DNA of 49,048 nucleotides from Oscillospiraceae bacterium (GTDB taxonomy: Bacteria; Bacillota; Clostridia; Oscillospirales; Oscillospiraceae). A program made the translations under genes and the position numbers. This document shows positions 12,496-42,816 of this stretch, piece by piece. The DNA lies in NCBI GenBank assembly GCA_031290515.1, contig JAITNK010000098.1:1-49048 (forward strand), given 5' to 3'. Below the pieces are notes generated by a model. The model was not told the DNA's origin, made no database searches, and saw only the letters and a list, made by a program, of their open reading frames with translations. How positions within the stretch are numbered: the first letter of the stretch is position 1; the number at the start of each line of letters is the position of its first letter.

Positions 12496-15411
12496 ATGTT
12501 CAAAAAATGGAATCTGAAAGCTAAGATATTCGTTTTTGTCACGGTCGTCGTCGTCGTGTCGCAAATCGCCATTACGTCGATGGTCGCCGCGCAGACGGTC
12601 TCGCTCACGAAGCGAGACGCATACGATCTTGCCGAGGTCACAGCCGAAAAATTTAAGAACGAAATCAAGTCGGAGATACAGGGCGCGCGGATTACAGCCG
12701 AGACTCTCTCGACCGTGATGGAGACGCTCAAGGCGAACGGCGTTAACGACCGCGAGCTGATGAACGAGGTTCTCAAAAACGCGCTCGCGTTCAAGGAGTA
12801 CATTACCGCGTTCTGCGTCGCCTACACCGTGGACGGACTCGACGGTATGGACTCGTTTTACGCCGGAGAGCCGGGTTCCATCTACAGTACAGACGGGCGT
12901 TACGCGCCCTACTGGAACAAGTTCGGCGACAGCATTGACGTGGAACCGCTTCAGGAAGCCTATCTCGACGAAGGCGTCACGCTCGACCAAGTTCCCGCGC
13001 TTCAGGAAGCCGGTCTCCCCTACGGTCAGACGCTTGACGAGCAGGACTGGTGGTACGTCCCCGAAGCAAACTGGGAAAACGGCGTCGTCGAATACATTAC
13101 GGAGCCTTACGCGTTTATGCTTCAGGGACAGAACGTCATTCTCGAAAGTCTGATTTTCTCTTTCGGCGACGCGGACGGCAATTTCCTCGGTCTCGTCTCG
13201 TCCGACATTGTGCTTGAGAACTTCCAGGCTATGGTAGAGCGCGTTAACCCGCAGAGTCAGGGCGGCTTTACCGAGATTTTCTCCAACGCCGGTTTCGTAA
13301 TCGCGCACCCGGACAGAGAGTACCTCGGTACGGACATCGAGGACGTGCTGAACGGCAGCGGCGACGCGTCCGCCGCCGCGAGCCTCGGCGACGTGAGAGC
13401 CGCGATTGCCGCCGGCGAATCCTATATTCACAGCGGAACCGACTATTACACCGTCTATATGCCGATCAGCTTCAGCGATGTCACCACGCCGTGGTCTGTC
13501 GCCGTGAGTATTCCTATGTCGGAAGTGCTCGGCAAAGCCGCGTCTATCAGAAACTACATTCTGACGATTTCGGCGATTGCCGCCGTCATAGTGATTGCGG
13601 TGCTGTACTTCATCTCGAGGAATATCACAGCCCCGATACTCGCGCTCGCGGACGCCGCGAAAGTCCTCGGCGACGGCAACTTCGAGGCGGAGATTCCGAG
13701 TACGGACGCGGGCGGCGAAATCGGCGTGCTTGCCCGCGCGGCAAAGTCTATGGCGGAGAAAATCAGCGACCTCGTCACAAAACTGCGTCACAACGCAGAA
13801 GAGCTTGAGGACAAGAACCGCAGTCTCGTCGCGCTCAACCTCGAGCTTGTAGAGGCTAAAGACCGCGCCGAAAGCTCAAACCGCGCAAAGAGCGACTTCC
13901 TGTCTAATATGTCGCACGAAATGCGCACGCCGCTCAACGCAATCATCGGTATGACCGCAATCGGCAAGCGCGCTCCGGATACCGAGAAGAAAGACTATTC
14001 GTTCGGCAAAATCGAGAACGCGTCCGCGCACCTGCTCGGCGTTATCAGCGATATTCTCGATATGTCCAAAATCTAGGCGAACAAGCTCGAACTCTCGCCG
14101 CTTGATTTCAGTCTCGACAAGGTCATTCAAAAGGTCTCCAACGTCATCGGATTCCGGGTCGAGGAGAAGAACGTCGCGTTCCGCGTCTCGGTCGATAAGG
14201 CTATCCCGCAGCGAATCGTCGGGGACGACCAGCGGCTCGCGCAGGTGCTTACGAATCTGCTGTCAAACGCCGTGAAATTCACTCCGGAGGACGGCGAGGT
14301 GTCGCTCGGCGTTACGCTGCTCGCGGAAAACGATTCGCTGTGCCGGCTGCAATTCTCCGTTACCGACAACGGTATCGGAATCAGCGCGGAACAGCAGACG
14401 CGTCTGTTCACGTCGTTCCAGCAGGCGGACAATTCCACCTCGCGGCGGTTCGGCGGCACCGGACTCGGTCTGTCAATCTCCAAGCGCATCGTCGAGCTTA
14501 TGGGCGGCGACATTCGCGTCGAGTCGGAACTCGGACACGGTTCCGTGTTCACCTTTACGATTAACGCGGAGCGCGGCAAAGCCGACCACCCGAGTCTGCT
14601 GAACCCCGGCGTGAACTGGAAAAACGTAAGCATACTCGCGGTGGACGACGACCCGGAGACGCTTGCGTACTTCCGCGAACTTGCGCTGACGCTCGGAATA
14701 AAGCTCGACGCGGCTTCCGATGCGGAAGAGGCGCGCGCGATACTCGACCGCGGCGTTCTGCACGACATTTATTTCCTCGACTATAAAATGCCGGGTATGA
14801 GCGGTCTCGAACTTTGCCGGACGATTAAGGACTCGCGCGCCGACAAAACCGCGGTCGCGATTATCTCCGCCGCCGACTGGAGCTCAATCTCGGAACACGC
14901 GAAAACCGCCGGCGTCGATCGCTTTGTCTCAAAACCGCTGCACTCGTCCGACATTGAGGACTGCATAAACGAATTCCTCGGCAACACCGCTCCGGCGGAG
15001 GAAACCGCTTCGGACGACGAGCCGGACAACTTCAAAGGACACACGATTCTGCTCGCGGAGGACGTTGAGATTAACCGCGAAATCGTCGTCGCGCTGCTTG
15101 AGCCGACGGAGGTTACTGTGGACTGCGCCGAAAACGGCGCGGAAGCCGTCCGCCTGTTTACGGAGAACCCGGAACGCTACGACCTGATTCTTATGGACGT
15201 GCAAATGCCGCAGATGGACGGACTTGAGGCGACGCGCGTCATACGCGCGCTTGACGTTCCGGAGGCGAAAACCGTCCCGATAGTCGCGCTTACGGCGAAC
15301 GTATTCCGCGACGATGTTGAAAAGTGCCGCGAAGCCGGTATGAACAGTCATCTCGGCAAGCCGCTGATTCTCGACGCGCTGCTCGCGGAGCTTCGCAAGT
15401 ACTGCGTGTAG
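12496..15411 (+). pseudogene. Hybrid sensor histidine kinase (TM, dCache, HAMP, HisKA, HATPase_c, 2 x REC) interrupted by one in-frame TAG at 14074-14076
   Basis: Track ORFs 12496-14076 and 14245-15411 are in the same frame. Reading through gives [19 protein letters not shown], where kinases have SKIEAGKLEL. H-box [14 protein letters not shown]-box LLSNAVKFT, G-boxes, and two receiver domains (ILAVDDD..., ILLAEDVEINREI...DLILMDVQMPQMDG). Confidence 0.75.
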
Positions 15412-15470: not shown

Positions 15471-16370
15471 TTACTCCCCAAATACCGGGTAACGCGGCAC
15501 ATCCGCAATCACGGAGAATATGCCGTCTTTGTGCATTTTCTTCCGGTCTTCCACAGACAGCCACTTTCCGGCGTGACGCGTGAAGCAGTAACATTCGAGC
15601 CGGTCGTCTTCTGAAATGCCGTAGAACATACCGACGGACTGCATTTTTGACGTATCCATAACGTCCATTCCCATAAGCCCGGGACCCGCCATTTCGCGCC
15701 AGGTGAAAACGTAAATGTTCTCCGCGACTTTGACGTAGCGCGCCGGTTCCGCGATTGTGAGGAACAGGCTGTCCGCGCCGCCGCCGATTTCGTTCAGGAA
15801 AAACTGCGGGTTGATGTAATGGTGCGTGAGCCACATTCCGCCGACGTCCCACGCGGCGACCTTGCCGACGAAATCGTCGGTAAAACTGTGCCGCTCCGCC
15901 GGCAGCTTGCCGTTCACCTCGAACGCGGCGAACGAGATACTGCCCGAAACGTCGCGCGGCGTGTAGTCGTAGTGACCGATTTGCGCGTCGTTTATCGTCA
16001 CGAGACCGGTGTTGAAGTCCACGCAGTACGCGGACATTTTCGGCGGCGGAGTTGATTTTCCTTTGCCGTTCGTGTGCAGGTGAAAGAAAAACACGATTCC
16101 GGGAGCCGCGTCATACGACTCGTAGTATTCCTCAATCCACACTCCGCGCTGGCTGCGGCGCAGATGATTCTCGTCGATAAACTCGTACTCGACGCCGGAA
16201 TTCCCGAACGTCGTGAATTTGAGCTTTTTCGCGTCGCGGAGCTTCGTCGAAAATTTGCGCGGGAAGTGCAATCCCCCGTCGTAGGGGTTGTTCGCCGGGT
16301 CGTTCACAATGTCGTAAATCTCGCGTCGTGTGAACTGGGTTGCGGGGAGTCGTCTTTCGTGCGGCGGCAT
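15471..16370 (-). CDS. Cytoplasmic protein of uncertain family (possibly MoaF/calycin-like two-domain protein)
   Basis: AAAGGAGGA lies 7 nt before ATG 16370 (MPPHERRL...); the start was trimmed from track start 16445. The family guess is weak. Confidence 0.6.
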   Translation of the reverse strand: MPPHERRLPATQFTRREIYDIVNDPANNPYDGGLHFPRKFSTKLRDAKKLKFTTFGNSGVEYEFIDENHLRRSQRGVWIEEYYESYDAAPGIVFFFHLHTNGKGKSTPPPKMSAYCVDFNTGLVTINDAQIGHYDYTPRDVSGSISFAAFEVNGKLPAERHSFTDDFVGKVAAWDVGGMWLTHHYINPQFFLNEIGGGADSLFLTIAEPARYVKVAENIYVFTWREMAGPGLMGMDVMDTSKMQSVGMFYGISEDDRLECYCFTRHAGKWLSVEDRKKMHKDGIFSVIADVPRYPVFGE

Positions 16371-16391
16371 ATATATTCCTCCTTTTATTTT

Positions 16392-16457
16392 CCGGGCGGC
16401 GAAGCCTCCGTCTCCCGGGTTCCGGCACAACGCCGGGCGTGACACGGCTTTGCCGGA
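16392..16457 (-). repeat. Copy 1 of the conserved GC-rich leader element (sense with the downstream gene)
   Basis: Sense strand reads CCGGCAAAGCCGTGTCACGCCCGGCGTTGTGCCGGAACCCGGGAGACGGAGGCTTCGCCGCCCGG and ends 7 nt before the RBS. Aligns with the copies at 34989-35064 and 41795-41864. Confidence 0.45.
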
Positions 16458-16502
16458 ATGCTTTTCCCTATACCGCGCCGGTAAACAGGTAACGCTCCGC
16501 GG

Positions 16503-17543
16503 TTAACTGTCGCAGTATCCGCAGGCTCCGTCGTCGCCGAACAGCGGCGGGAGATACGGCTCGCGCCGCGTGACGCAGTTCCGGTTATCGCATACCGCCC
16601 CGCCGACCGGCTGCGGCTCCGGCTTCTCTCTCGGCATATGCGACGTCTGCGTGAGCAGAGCCATTCGTATGTACATACCGTACCGCGCCTGGTCGAAGTA
16701 CCGCGCGCGCGGGTCCGCGTCCACCTCCGGCGCGATTTCGTTGACCCGCGGCAGGGGGTGCAGTATAATCAGTTCGCGCTTCGCGGCGGCGAGCCTGTCC
16801 TTTGTGAGAATCAGCTCTTCCGGATACTCGCCGAGTCCGCCCATACGCTCCCTCTGAATCCGCGTCATATAAAGCGTGTCAAGCTCCGGAAGCGTCTCCT
16901 CGAGCGACAGGCATTCGTAAAACGGCGCGCCCTGCGACTTCAGACGGCGCGTGATATACTCCGGCATCGAAAGCTCCGGCGGGGAGATAAACACGAACCG
17001 CACGCCGCCGAATTTCGCGAGCGCGGCGACGAGCGAATGAACTGTGCGTCCGTTTTTCAGGTCGCCGCACAGCCCGATTGTGAAATCGCCGATTTTCCCG
17101 CGTATCTCCGCTATCGTCGTAAGGTCGGTAAGCGTCTGCGTCGGGTGCATATGCCCGCCGTCACCGGCGTTTATGACCGGCACGTCGGAATACAGCGACG
17201 CGGCTTTCGCCGCCCCCTCGACCGGATTGCGTATGACGATAACGTCGGAATACGTCGCCGCCATACGAACCGTGTCCGCGAGCGACTCGCCTTTTGATGC
17301 CGAGGTCGCGTCCGCGTTTTCAAAGCCGAATACTTTGCCGCCGAGTCTTTGCATCGCGGCTTGGAACGAGAATTTGGTCCTCGTGCTCGGCTCAAAGAAA
17401 AGCGACGCCATAAGCCGGTCGCGGCAAGCGTCGCTGTAGTAGTGCGGGTGCGCGATAATCTCGCGGCACAGCGAGTACAAAGAGTCCCACCGCGCCGTGT
17501 CTATGTCGGCAATGCCGATAAGGTGCCTGCCCTCCGGCTTCAT
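16503..17543 (-). CDS. pyrB: Aspartate carbamoyltransferase catalytic chain with a C-terminal PyrI-type zinc-domain extension
   Basis: STRTKFSF, HPTQ and HPLPR motifs. The extra 45 aa end in CDNRNCVTRREPYLPPLF...CGYCDS (C-x4-C ... C-x2-C). Confidence 0.93.
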   Translation of the reverse strand: MKPEGRHLIGIADIDTARWDSLYSLCREIIAHPHYYSDACRDRLMASLFFEPSTRTKFSFQAAMQRLGGKVFGFENADATSASKGESLADTVRMAATYSDVIVIRNPVEGAAKAASLYSDVPVINAGDGGHMHPTQTLTDLTTIAEIRGKIGDFTIGLCGDLKNGRTVHSLVAALAKFGGVRFVFISPPELSMPEYITRRLKSQGAPFYECLSLEETLPELDTLYMTRIQRERMGGLGEYPEELILTKDRLAAAKRELIILHPLPRVNEIAPEVDADPRARYFDQARYGMYIRMALLTQTSHMPREKPEPQPVGGAVCDNRNCVTRREPYLPPLFGDDGACGYCDS

Positions 17544-33048: not shown

Positions 33049-34968
33049 TTAGAATATGTCCGGCAGTGCTGCGTCCGCCGTCTGCTCGTCCGCGACCGTT
33101 TCTATAACGCCTCGTCCGCCTTCGCACAGCCGCCTGAACTCTTCGCCGCCCATCGTCTCGTACTTCAGCAGATGCTCCGCCGTCGCCGCGACGAGGTCTG
33201 CGCGCTCTTTCAGCAGCCGCGTACATTCCGCAATCGCGCGGTCGAATATCTCCTTGACCGCTCGGTCAATCGCGGCGGCGGTCTCCTCGCTGTAGCTTTT
33301 TGTCTGCTGGAAATCGCGCCCGATAAACACGCTGTGCGACGAATCGTCGAACGATATGGGACCGAGTTCGTCGCTCATACCGTACATAGTTACCATAGCC
33401 CGCGCGATTTGCGACGCCTGCTGTATATCGCTCGACGCGCCGGTCGAAATGTCGGCGAGGAACAGCTGTTCCGCAACGCGGCCGCCGAGCGCGGCGACAA
33501 TGCGTTCAAACATCTCGCTGCGCGACTGGGTGCCTTTGTCCTCCTCCGCGCGGTAAACCGTTACGCCGCCCGCCTGACCTCTCGGGATAATCGAGATGTG
33601 GTGAACCGGGTCTGTGTGTTCGAGAAAGAACGCGGCGACGGCGTGTCCCGCCTCGTGGTACGCGGTGAGCTTCTTTGCTTTCTCCGTGACGACGCGGCTC
33701 TTTTTCTCGGGTCCCACCATAACCTTGAGCATCGCGTCCTCAATGTCGGACATTTGCACGACCGGTCTGTCCGCGCGCGCGGCGAGCAGCGCGGATTCGT
33801 TGAGCAGATTTTCAAGGTCCGCGCCGGTAAACCCGACCGTCGTCTGCGCGATGTGCTTCAGCGACACGTTTTCGTCAAACCGCTTCCCGCGCGAGTGTAC
33901 CTTCAGAATTTCCTCGCGCCCCTTAACGTCCGGCAACCCGACGTACACGGTGCGGTCGAACCGCCCCGGACGCAGAAGCGCGCTGTCGAGAATGTCCGCG
34001 CGGTTCGTCGCCGCGATTATGATAACGCCCTCGTTCGTCGTGAATCCGTCCATCTCGACGAGCAGCTGGTTCAGCGTCTGCTCTCGCTCGTCGTGACCGC
34101 CGCCGAGACCGGCTCCGCGCTGCCGCCCCACCGCGTCGATTTCATCAATGAATATTATCGCGGGAGCGAGTTTTTTCGCCTGGTCGAACAAATCGCGCAC
34201 ACGGCTCGCGCCCACGCCGACGTACAGCTCGACGAAGTCGGAGCCGGAAATCGACAGAAACTGCACCCCCGCCTCTCCGGCGACGGCTTTTGCGATTAGC
34301 GTTTTGCCGGTGCCCGGAGGTCCCACGAGCAGCACGCCCTTCGGTATTCTCGCTCCGAGTTCCGTGTATTTTCCCGGCGCGCGCAGGAAATCCACGATTT
34401 CGGCAAGTTCCGCCTTTTCTTCGTCCGCGCCCGCAACGTCCGCGAACGTGACCTTCTTCTTGTCCTCGGAGGCGAGCCGCGTCCGCGCCTTACTGAAGCG
34501 CATCGCACCCCTGTCCCCGCCCGCGCCGCTGCGGTTCATCATCATATTGAATACAAATATAAACACGCCGATAACGATTACATACGGTATTATCGAGAAC
34601 CACCACGGCATCTGCGCGTTCGGTGTGAGCGTATATATAAAGCCGCCGGACGGATTCTCCATCGCCTCGTCGATATATCCTTTGTTGTCCTCGTAAAACG
34701 TGTAGAAGTCGTAGAGCGTGTGCGACACGGTCGTCGCCTGCTCGTGATTTTCGTCGGGGCGTATCAGGTCGATTGTGAGCGTACTGCCCTTAATCTCGAA
34801 GCTCTTGACGTTATGCTCGATAAAATAGCGGCGAACCTCGTAGTACTCGACCTTTATCGGCGTGCCCGGTCTGAAGAACCTCGCGACGACTATCGCGAGA
34901 ATAAGCGCAATCGCGACTAAAACCAGAAAGCCCTTGTCGCGCGGTTTTTTTTGGTTTTTTGGATTCAA
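33049..34968 (-). CDS. ftsH: ATP-dependent zinc metalloprotease FtsH
   Basis: Walker [12 protein letters not shown], and zinc motif HEAGHAV. Likely TTG start at 34968, 7 nt after AAGGAG; the frame stays open to 35052. Confidence 0.95.
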
Positions 34969-34988
34969 CTTTACTCTCCTTATTATTT

Positions 34989-35106
34989 GCTCGGTCGGGC
35001 AAAGCCCTCCGTTCGCTTCAGATTCCGGCAAAACGCCGCTTCCGTGAGACACGGCTTTGCCGCATTAACCGCTCAGTCGGGCAAAGCCCTCCGTTCGCTT
35101 CAGATT
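34989..35106 (-). repeat. hpt-ftsH intergenic: two 36-bp direct repeats (1 mismatch, 82-bp period) flanking copy 2 of the conserved leader element
   Basis: 34989-35024 and 35071-35106 are identical except G/A at 34993/35075. Both contain a GGGCAAAGCCC hairpin. The central GGCTTTGCC (35053-35061) is complementary to both. Confidence 0.6.
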
Positions 35107-35147
35107 TTAACCGCCCGGACGGCGGCGACGCCCGCAGCCCGCGGGAT

Positions 35148-35690
35148 TCAGCTGCCGTCCGGCAAATAAATCTCCGGCTTCAGCACGCCGATATACGGAA
35201 GATTGCGGTAACGCTCCGCGTAGTCGAGTCCGTAGCCGACGAAGAATTCGGACGGACACCCGAAACCGGTATAGTCCGCGGAAACGTCCGCTTCGCGCCG
35301 TTCGGTTTTATCGAGAAACGCGCATATTTTCACCGACGCGGGGTTCTGCGCGAGCAGCTTGTCGCGAAGTTTTTTAAGCGTACGCCCCGTGTCGAGAATG
35401 TCCTCGACTATCAGAATGTGCCTGTTTTCGGCGGCGACACTCATCGAGACCTCGACCGTGCCGGACGTGACCGCGGCGAAACCGTAGCTCGACGCTTTCA
35501 GAAACTGCACCTCGAGCGGGAATCCGCAGGCGCGCACAAGATCCGCCATAAAGACGAACGCGCCCTTTAGTATGCCGATAAACACCGGATTTTTATCCGC
35601 GTACTCACTTTGAAGCGCGGCGGCGAGTTCCCGCACCCTGCGCCGTATTTCGTCCTCGGAGTACGCGATATACAAAACGTCTTTATGCAA
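35148..35690 (-). CDS. hpt: Hypoxanthine phosphoribosyltransferase
   Basis: ILIVEDILDTGRTL PRPP-binding motif. TTG start 7 nt after GGGGGG. Confidence 0.93.
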   Translation of the reverse strand: MHKDVLYIAYSEDEIRRRVRELAAALQSEYADKNPVFIGILKGAFVFMADLVRACGFPLEVQFLKASSYGFAAVTSGTVEVSMSVAAENRHILIVEDILDTGRTLKKLRDKLLAQNPASVKICAFLDKTERREADVSADYTGFGCPSEFFVGYGLDYAERYRNLPYIGVLKPEIYLPDGS

Positions 35691-38284: not shown

Positions 38285-38728
38285 CTACTCCTCCGTGACG
38301 AGTACGCTGAGCGCGCCGGACACTTCGTAGCCGAGCTTGACCTTTATCTCGTATGTGCCGAACGCCTTGATATGTTCCGACACGAACTTGTTTTTCTCGA
38401 TTTTGACGCCGTGCTGCGCTTCGAGAGCCTCCGCGATTTCGGTGTTCGTAACCGAGCCGAAGAGCCGTCCCGCGCCGCCGGACTTCGCCGTGACGCGCAC
38501 CTGAATCTCCGACAGTTTTTGCGCGGTCGCCTGCGCCTCCGCTCTGTCAAGCTCGCCGCGTCGTTTCTTCGCCGCGTCCTGCTGCTTCATTTGGTTGACG
38601 GTTTCCGCGGTCGCCTCCACCGCGAGCTTGCGCGGCAGCAAAAAGTTTCTCGCGTAGCCGTCCGAAACCTCTACCATCTGCCCTTTTTTGCCCTGGTCGC
38701 GCACGTCCTGCCGCAGTATAACTTTCAT
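38285..38728 (-). CDS. rplI: 50S ribosomal protein L9
   Basis: [45 protein letters not shown]. Confidence 0.96.
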
Positions 38729-38810
38729 CTGTAATCTCCTCTTAATTTATCGCCCGGTCGGCGCAGCCTCCCGCCGCTTCGCGCCCGTAATCCCGCGCGC
38801 CGCAACGCTT

Positions 38811-41726: not shown

Positions 41727-41794
41727 TATTTACGATGAACCGCGAACGCGCGCCGCGCCGTATGCGTGCGGCGGTGTGCGGTCAGGCGGACATA

Positions 41795-41864
41795 TCGGCG
41801 AAGCCGCGTCTTACGGAGCGGCGTTTTGCCGAAACTTGAGCGCGGGAGGGCTTTCTCGCCCCGC
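41795..41864 (+). repeat. Copy 3 of the conserved GC-rich leader element (sense with degV)
   Basis: TCGGCGAAGCCGCGTCTTACGGAGCGGCGTTTTGCCGAAACTTGAGCGCGGGAGGGCTTTCTCGCCCCGC aligns with the ftsH and 16392-16457 copies. Confidence 0.45.
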
Positions 41865-41928
41865 AAAGTCTGCGGACTTCGCGGGGACCCCGATTGCCTG
41901 ACCAAGCGGATAACGGGAGGTATTAAAT

Positions 41929-42816
41929 TTGGCTGGGTATCAGGTCACAGCGTCCTCGACGACGGATTTGCCCGCGGATTACTATGTGAAGCGGAGCGTT
42001 CCGATTGCGAACTACAGGTTTCATCTTGACGGAGAGGTTTATCTCGACGATTTCGGGAAGTCTCTGCCGCTCTCCGAGTTTTACAGGAGAATCGGCGAGG
42101 ACGGCGCGGAGCCTACGACTTCGCAGCTCAACCTGTCGGACTATATCAGTCTATTCGAGCCGATTCTGCACCGGGGCGAGGACGTTCTGCACCTTGAGAT
42201 GTCCTCGGCTATCACCGGTTCGATTCAGTCCGCGTACTTTGCGCGCGACCAGCTCTCCGCGCAGTACCCCGACCGCAGGATTTATCTTGTGGACACGCTC
42301 GCCGCGAGCGCGGGCTACGGGCTGCTGCTCGACAAAGTACTCGACTTCCGCGACGAAGGTATGCCCGCAGAAGAGCTTTACAACTGGACCGAGGCGCACA
42401 AGCTGAATATGCACCACTGGTTTTTTACGTCGGAGCTGAAACACCTGCGCCGCGGCGGGCGCGTCTCGGCTTCCGCCGCAATCGTCGGGACGTTTCTGAA
42501 CATCTGCCCGCTTATGAATATGTCGAATGAGGGCAAGCTGACCCCGAGGGCTAAAATCCGCGGCAAAAAGCACGTCGTCGCGGAGTGCGTCCGGCGAATG
42601 GCTGAGTTCGCGGACGGCGGAACGTCATACTCCGGCAAGGTCTTTTTGTCGCATTCCGCGAATATGACGGACGCGCAGTCCGTCGTGTCGCTGGTACTCG
42701 CGACGTTCCCGAACGTCAGGGAGGTTCAGGTTTCCGACGTCGGCACCGTCATCGGAAGTCACACCGGACCCGGTACTGTCGCGCTGTTCTTCTGGGGGCG
42801 GAAGCGCGTGGATTAG
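41929..42816 (+). CDS. DegV-family fatty-acid-binding protein
   Basis: TTG start 8 nt after GGGAGG. Typical DegV layout (SSTTDLP..., TSQLNLSDY, SSAITGSIQSA, GTVIGSHTGPG). Confidence 0.9.
   Translation: MAGYQVTASSTTDLPADYYVKRSVPIANYRFHLDGEVYLDDFGKSLPLSEFYRRIGEDGAEPTTSQLNLSDYISLFEPILHRGEDVLHLEMSSAITGSIQSAYFARDQLSAQYPDRRIYLVDTLAASAGYGLLLDKVLDFRDEGMPAEELYNWTEAHKLNMHHWFFTSELKHLRRGGRVSASAAIVGTFLNICPLMNMSNEGKLTPRAKIRGKKHVVAECVRRMAEFADGGTSYSGKVFLSHSANMTDAQSVVSLVLATFPNVREVQVSDVGTVIGSHTGPGTVALFFWGRKRVD

Follow-up and report, generated by a model that had tools for sequence, protein, structure and literature searches.

The stretch of DNA analysed here as a whole, referred to below as the window, is a 49,048-nt contig from an uncultured gut Oscillospiraceae bacterium. 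A G+C-rich sequence able to form a long imperfect stem recurs in it upstream of unrelated genes, and the question raised by the segment at 41795-41864 is what kind of element this is. The original prediction left open two alternatives, a cis-regulatory leader RNA family and an orientation-biased REP-like repeat, and it was partly supported: the second alternative stood and the first did not. The element is best read as a DNA repeat that spreads, rather than as an RNA switch tied to particular genes. We consider it probable that its two parts are modules of a lineage-specific family of non-coding mosaic repeats, which has been massively expanded in one Oscillospiraceae species.

Three composite copies in the window

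The three sequences on which the prediction was based are present in the window as described, and show a mean column identity of 73% on alignment. They are conserved copies of one element, and the segment at 41795-41864 lies within the third. To describe them we used a covariance model, R1, which is based on 62 copies and whose structure was written by hand, since RNAalifold on a MAFFT alignment recovered only 4 pairs because a bulge shifts the arms out of register. Each copy consists of two hairpins, module A followed by module B, and two further module B units stand alone in the window. The features are as follows.

34975-35075, minus strand: composite A+B in the hpt-ftsH spacer (R1, 80.6 bits)
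35023-35063, minus strand: module A hairpin of the ftsH composite (nhmmer)
34982-35017, minus strand: module B hairpin of the ftsH composite (nhmmer)
35064-35099, minus strand: extra stand-alone module B, GAAGCGAACGGAGGGCTTTGCCCGACTGAGCGGTTAAT (nhmmer, 35.1 bits)
38745-38778, minus strand: stand-alone module B (nhmmer, 21.5 bits)
16503-17543, minus strand: pyrB (Pfam)
16376-16468, minus strand: composite in the spacer between pyrB and the MoaF_C-domain gene (R1, 68.7 bits)
15471-16370, minus strand: MoaF_C-domain gene (Pfam)
41783-41921, plus strand: degV-proximal composite (R1, 62.9 bits over 139 nt)
41791-41834, plus strand: module A of the degV copy
41838-41854, plus strand: 5' half of module B of the degV copy
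41855-41894, plus strand: palindrome nested in the degV copy (module C)
41895-41914, plus strand: 3' half of module B and tail of the degV copy

In the hpt-ftsH spacer, the tail of the composite (...GAGCAAATAAT) is followed directly by AAGGAG and the ftsH TTG start at 34968, and the extra module B lies directly 5' of the composite, giving a B-A-B mosaic. A further G+C-rich hairpin, CCCGCGGGCTGCGGGCGTCGCCGCCGTCCGGGCGG (35100-35147, minus strand), begins directly after the hpt stop codon and ends in GCGGTTAAA, which mimics the module B tail. The whole 179-nt spacer is thus made of repeat-like modules. In the pyrB spacer, module A (16420-16461, nhmmer) is followed by a degenerate module B, and the copy stops just 5' of AAAGGAGG and the ATG at 16370. 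Of note, the gene downstream of pyrB, past the repeat, has a MoaF_C match only and is not another pyr gene. The stand-alone module B at 38745-38778 lies 16 nt upstream of the ATG of rplI (38285-38728), which encodes ribosomal protein L9 and carries L9 Pfam domains.

The third copy precedes a gene with a DegV Pfam match. It had been described as ending about 55 nt before the ribosome-binding site (RBS), a distance that proved to be mistaken: the 40-nt palindrome splits module B there, and the resumed 3' half stops 14 nt short of the TTG start at 41929, with GGGAGG at 41915-41920. In the predicted fold the inserted hairpin lies within the loop of module B, and the same B-C-B form recurs on other contigs. 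The three copies do lie upstream of genes, as stated, but two of the three occupy intercistronic spacers and not 5' leaders. A 14-nt core, GGCRAAGCCGYGTC, has four exact matches in the window; the fourth, at 13531, was dismissed as a chance match, being within a coding region and lacking the rest of the element.

The hpt-ftsH spacer and the spacer between pyrB and the MoaF_C-domain gene showed no site resembling a promoter or terminator. A promoter or terminator inside the element was rejected, none being found at the three window loci and no U-tract following either hairpin. The original prediction did not recognise the element as any known riboswitch or leader class, and Rfam 15 gave no match at gathering score across the whole window; at E values up to 10, the region of the ftsH copy (34940-35160) returned chance-level matches only.

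A mosaic repeat present in hundreds of copies

The window is contig C53 of an assembly of 1.96 Mb in 164 contigs, with 60% G+C and 95.6% completeness. An iterated nhmmer search seeded with the three window copies returned 181 composite copies in this genome, and R1, for which 150 candidates were scored, at least 148. Counted separately, module A, a bulged hairpin of about 47 nt, is present in 136 copies, and module B, a hairpin of about 36 nt, in 441. A strict pattern for module B gave 213 genomic matches, versus none for a reversed control. The composite has the consensus GGCATTTCGGCAAAGSCGCG...CGSCGTTTTGCCGAAAC-TTGAGCG-NN-GGGAGGGCTTYGCCCGACC-RAGCGG-NTAAT, and module B alone GAGCG-NN-GG-GA-GGGC-TTY-GCCC-GA-CC-RAGCGG-NTAAT. 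Only three of the 181 composites and 14 of the 441 module B copies fall inside called genes. These numbers, with the strong sense bias described below, agree with an orientation-biased REP-like repeat.

Module B is the common 3' unit of the mosaic. It is joined to alternative 5' hairpins, namely module A, an "E" module and others, and it forms head-to-tail tandem arrays. Units of the mosaic are also found alone or one nested in another. The anchor motif of the "E" module is found 53 times, upstream of htpG, serC, prfA, murA and response regulators among others; the "E" composite reads ...ACGGAACGGCAGCGGCGTTTTTGAGCCGC-NNN-GCGGCGAAAAATATT, followed by module B. Examples are the following.

C49:2318, minus strand: "E" module
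C86:179, plus strand: "E" module
C39:551, plus strand: "E" module
C17:15779, minus strand: "E" module

A variant of it, GGCGTCAAATTCGAGC..GCGAGAATTT, has the architecture found in relatives of the same genus.

Repeated sequence makes up about 21% of intergenic bases, and module B is also found within longer G+C-rich hairpin mosaics that break the assembly. Upstream of one module A subfamily, such mosaics contain G/C-tract palindromes (GGGGGAACCACAGGGGGA...CCCCTATGGCTCCCCC...CCCCCTCT) at C63:1850-2140, at C142:4900-5190 and at equivalent places on C26 and C49; the mosaics coincide with contig ends, and the palindromes resemble BoxC or intrastrand-triplex-type repeats of Escherichia coli. The genes that carry a copy are functionally unrelated (ftsH, rplI, glyA, htpG, prfA, murA and tRNA genes). 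A sense copy is located upstream of about 12% of genes, and lies against the RBS in about 5-6%.

Hairpins are kept between subfamilies by paired changes

The long imperfect stem described in the original prediction is real. When 62 genomic copies were scored, pairing reached 92.9% of cells for the 14-pair helix of module A and 82.9% for the scored part of module B, compared with 26-55% in a control with slid partner columns. The compensatory change at the outermost pair of module A, first noticed between window copies, is also seen among these genomic copies, with U-A in 35 copies, C-G in 8 and U-G in 8. Two inner pairs also switch, between A-U and C-G (43/14) and between G-C and C-G (27/21). 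Among the inner stems of module B, 159 are GGGC/GCCC, 107 GGC/GCC and 20 GGAC/GTCC. A tandem GA/GA step flanks this stem in 250 of the 335 copies that were parsed, and the core GA-GGGC-TTY-GCCC-GA hardly varies.

The mismatches within the stems lack an RNA-type asymmetry. Counts of G·U against A·C mismatches are 39:36 for module A and 15:38 for module B, and an excess of G·U was found in neither. We read this as subfamily founders retaining the hairpin while individual copies drift neutrally. Folding of single sequences reproduced both hairpins and predicted the Shine-Dalgarno (SD) sequence to be unpaired. The folding-energy z-scores, from -0.8 to -1.9, are unremarkable alone.

Copies are polar and abut gene boundaries

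The position of copies relative to genes was assessed on genes called with our own codon-model caller, with RBS-aware starts. In co-directional gaps, module B is found in sense orientation only in 117 regions, in antisense orientation only in 20 and in both in 4, some of these orientation classes being possibly wrong. For A+B loci in the same gaps, 75 are sense and 15 antisense (binomial p of about 1e-10). Their density per intergenic kb is the same across gap types, with 90 loci in 192 kb of co-directional, 25 in 60.5 kb of divergent and 16 in 32 kb of convergent gaps, which shows that the repeats also occur outside 5' regions. According to the prediction, an ordinary REP element would be equally frequent in both orientations and at gene 3' ends, with no covariation. 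The answer was mixed: copies at 3' ends exist, orientation is far from equal, and the stems covary between subfamilies.

Placement of the sense copies is sharp. Among 151 informative regions, 77 have a nearest sense module B whose 3' end falls 10-29 nt before the start codon, where uniform placement predicts about 20. A typical junction reads ...GACCRAGCGGTAAAT-AAGGAGG-N7-9-ATG. At three tRNA genes, a sense module B ends 6-9 nt before the 5' end of the tRNA. In antisense copies, the same AT-rich tail usually adjoins or overlaps the stop codon belonging to a gene that reads towards the copy, and some of these copies adjoin the 3' end of a tRNA gene. In a cluster of tRNA genes for Cys, Phe and Asp (C108:1066-1914), antisense module B units are located 0-76 nt from tRNA ends, and one of them touches the 3' end of tRNA-Asp.

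Several simple explanations for this polarity were rejected. A link to replication does not hold, as 16 copies run against and 15 with the coding-strand-corrected GC skew, itself weak. Nor are antisense copies decaying, their scores being no different from those of sense copies. That the element itself supplies the SD is contradicted by array units that have none, by a spacing to the SD that varies from 0 to 8 nt or more, and by the copies that adjoin tRNA genes.

Expansion in one species and patchy occurrence elsewhere

FtsH places the genome in the Oscillospiraceae, nearest to termite-gut metagenome-assembled genomes (MAGs) and Sporobacter termitidis, at 68-71% identity. R1 gave one to four weak matches in 3 of 11 genomes of the same genus and none in 29 other genera. 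The module B core, GAGGGCTTYGCCCGAC, is present in 1-8 copies in 8 of these 11 genomes, and copy number thus differs about 100-fold between sister species. Beyond the genus, the strict module B pattern was absent from all 120 other genera of the family searched, and a 17-nt module B core from 400 other Bacillota. Other 5' hairpins accompany the core in the same-genus genomes (CCGCCGCG..GCGGCG and AAATTCGAGC..GCGAGAATTT), where it is also often found directly before the SD and ATG.

The insertion sites are not shared. Six same-genus genomes have an hpt-ftsH spacer of 30-60 nt that lacks the element, and in the closest relative the spacer holds module B only, versus B-A-B in this genome. Conversely, none of 10 genes with module B upstream in relatives carries it here, against a chance expectation of about 12%. 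Non-conserved sites, a burst in copy number and the lack of a G·U excess together speak against a cis-regulatory leader RNA family. No strain-level presence/absence polymorphism was seen: an exact-protein look-up led to a single further contig, identical at 1917 of 1919 nt and so from what is practically the same strain.

The exact 22-nt core GAGGGCTTYGCCCGACCRAGCG was found in 26 JGI metagenome contigs of 67-74% G+C, whose proteins share a median identity of about 41% with those of this genome; same-genus loci have 53-63% G+C. A rough estimate for this core in high-G+C DNA is about one chance match, and the copies on the high-G+C contigs are therefore homologues. Their flanks, which the search did not prescribe, extend the core to a symmetric hairpin in which the tandem GA step occurs twice, GC-GA-GG-GA-GGGC-TTY-GCCC-GA-CC-GA-GC, and lineage-specific hairpins are located 5' of this double-GA hairpin. 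The exact core was not found in viral contigs, a search of plasmids gave chance-level matches only, Rfam gave no match on the high-G+C metagenome homologues, and a literature search with the core sequence returned none.

A sense module B repeat lies upstream of glyA in this genome (C30:4221-4309, plus strand), and a sense module B is also found upstream of glyA in an unrelated organism of about 70% G+C (metagenome loci L132:947-968 and L135:522-543, both minus strand) whose GlyA is 62% identical. This may be a coincidence, given the roughly 12% of genes that carry a copy here.

Search for a partner enzyme

A six-frame Pfam search of the assembly (95.6% complete) found no Y1_Tnp, RVT_1, DEDD_Tnp_IS110 or TnpB zinc-ribbon domain, and no rve, DDE_Tnp_1, Transposase_mut or DDE_Tnp_ISL3 domain. 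In particular, a RAYT (Y1_Tnp, PF01797) had no match in this assembly, and control genomes did respond to the same search. MAGs often lose copies of insertion sequences (IS), and absence from an assembly is not proof of absence. The sole recombinase-like match was a Resolvase (serine-recombinase) remnant with three stop codons at C159:1969-2346 on the plus strand. The 3' end of the element, RAGCGGNTAAT, is no inverted copy of its 5' end, RGGCATTYCGG, and no target-site duplication was found in the flanks of single copies. An origin by reverse transcription, which was considered in view of the constant 3' end and variable 5' ends, was set aside since no RVT_1 was found. What emerges is a gut bacterium whose 2-Mb genome contains a 36-nt hairpin about 440 times, and in which none of the transposase and reverse-transcriptase families searched for was detected.

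Interpretation and rival explanations

The species-specific burst, the non-orthologous sites, the arrays and the nesting argue for a spreading DNA repeat over a gene-specific regulator, as do the neutral mismatch spectrum and the patchy distant occurrence. The element would behave as a non-autonomous mobile or self-expanding DNA repeat whose propagation requires the hairpin, most likely because a folded single strand is recognised by an enzyme. Such a requirement would explain why subfamilies keep their stems by paired changes and why copies decay without wobble bias. Copies may land, or survive only, at AT-rich gene boundaries, that is, just 5' of the SD, in the 5' flank of tRNA genes and at stop codons. 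The sense bias could reflect either polar insertion or the loss of antisense copies, the latter being removed because they would put CCUCCC, an anti-SD string, into the mRNA near the RBS. Sense copies would necessarily be transcribed within operon mRNAs, where two hairpins are predicted and the true SD would be left free. The effect on expression is probably small; at most, a copy might serve, as a 5'-proximal hairpin, to insulate or stabilise the cistron that follows.

Two other explanations have to be weighed against a spreading repeat. In one of them, which we hold to be unlikely, module B and its 5' partner hairpins form a functional RNA signal 5' of the SD or of the tRNA 5' end: a trans-acting protein or RNase would bind or cut the hairpin and so act on mRNA stability, processing or translation, and the copies would make up a post-transcriptional regulon whose repeats spread because they are useful. 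The strong sense bias with its peak before start codons (77 observed versus 20 expected) fits such a signal, and so do the abutment on SD and ATG that is repeated in same-genus relatives with different 5' hairpins, the nearly invariant core (GA/GA in 250/335) that is identical in distant lineages, the compensation in the inner stem (GGGC/GCCC, GGC/GCC, GGAC/GTCC) and an SD predicted to be unpaired. It is difficult to reconcile, however, with sites that are not conserved between species, with an equal density in convergent gaps, where no start codon follows, with antisense copies preserved as well as sense ones, with stems lacking any excess of G·U over A·C, with the 100-fold gap in copy number between sister species and with the functionally unrelated carrier genes. 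A role at the DNA level, as for enterobacterial REP/BIME, appears far less probable still. Here the copies would be sites of binding or cleavage for gyrase, IHF-like or other nucleoid proteins or, in an alternative form, cruciform or slipped structures organising supercoiling domains between transcription units. G+C-rich palindrome mosaics do occupy about a fifth of intergenic DNA, the symmetric G·U and A·C mismatches fit a structure readable on either strand, and other modules of the mosaic resemble G/C-tract palindromes; but a site in double-stranded DNA predicts neither a 6:1 sense bias relative to transcription nor 3' ends pointing towards gene boundaries, and GC skew is unrelated to orientation.

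The spreading repeat is thus the reading that we prefer, and the sharp abutment on the RBS, seen also in same-genus relatives, and the near-identical distant core would also fit an RNA function. Because of the strict polarity, the invariant double-GA hairpin and the missing enzyme, we keep in play both the RNA role, at the low probability given above, and a new mechanism of insertion. Under the latter, a speculative proposal that we rate as improbable, module B would be the recognition element of a horizontally moving insertion or copying system that uses no known transposase family and places its cargo with fixed polarity at gene boundaries, its targets being 5' of SD sites and tRNA genes, or stop codons. 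In a variant of this proposal, a conserved factor would bind the hairpin in mRNA, which would make it a portable cassette for translation start or stability. If copies affect mRNA stability or translation even slightly, expression would be reshaped genome-wide.

Comparison with known repeat families

The family is an uncatalogued BIME/BOX-like mosaic repeat with unusual polarity, and BIME/REP and BOX are its closest analogues in the way they work. It has in common with the BIME/REP sequences of E. coli and pseudomonads the presence of hundreds of short, G+C-rich, imperfect intergenic palindromes (136 to 441 copies here) in mosaics with other motifs, a presumed co-transcription with flanking genes, and stems kept by paired changes between subfamilies. 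It differs from REP in its unrelated sequence, its strong sense polarity and its abutment on the RBS. The defining tests for REP-RAYT and for MITEs gave negative results. No Y1_Tnp/RAYT gene is present in this assembly, and the copies do not form the inverted doublets of REPINs, mixed strands occurring in one of 167 clusters and arrays being head-to-tail. A MITE was rejected on the lack of terminal inverted repeats and target duplication and of a parent IS among the families searched.

Two other classes were also rejected. A riboswitch or cis-regulatory leader is contradicted by the 0/10 orthologues, the six empty spacers, the unrelated carriers and the lack of an Rfam match, and an integron attC site by copies dispersed over most contigs between housekeeping genes rather than in a clustered cassette array. 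Look-alike G+C-rich "leaders" in MAGs can thus be dispersed repeats, and a whole-genome count together with a check of orthologous sites settles the question of leader versus repeat quickly. Known models for REP, MITE and BOX explain neither the identical core in distant high-G+C lineages nor the strict polarity at gene boundaries.

BOX of Streptococcus pneumoniae (boxA-boxB(n)-boxC; PMC3049150) is likewise a Gram-positive modular composite with variable internal units, folds stably into hairpins and is co-transcribed with the genes next to it. The modules here include tandem B units, but they follow no fixed A-B(n)-C grammar and have no sequence relation to BOX. The terminal inverted repeats of BOX have been likened to those of ISSpn2, whereas no IS and no repeats of that kind came to light here. 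Gaps between convergent genes are enriched in BOX, RUP and SPRITE (PMC3049150, Table 1). The present repeat instead has an equal density across gap types, with the nearest sense module B abutting the start site in half of the informative regions, 77 out of 151.

ERIC/IRU and Correia (CREE/NEMIS) elements have an orientation-dependent effect on mRNA through cleavage by RNase E or RNase III (PMC3049150). Like the present family, they are hairpin repeats inserted in transcribed regions, but they are 100-150 bp long and have terminal inverted repeats, whereas the units here are 36-47 nt long, without such repeats and without duplication. Correia elements make TA target duplications. The MIRUs of Mycobacterium tuberculosis, which Supply et al. 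are said to have described in 1997, are reportedly short, gene-oriented repeats in the intercistronic spacers of operons; they are also said to be direct tandem repeats with small ORFs that overlap the stop and start codons of their neighbours. By comparison, the modules found here are hairpins that contain no ORF.
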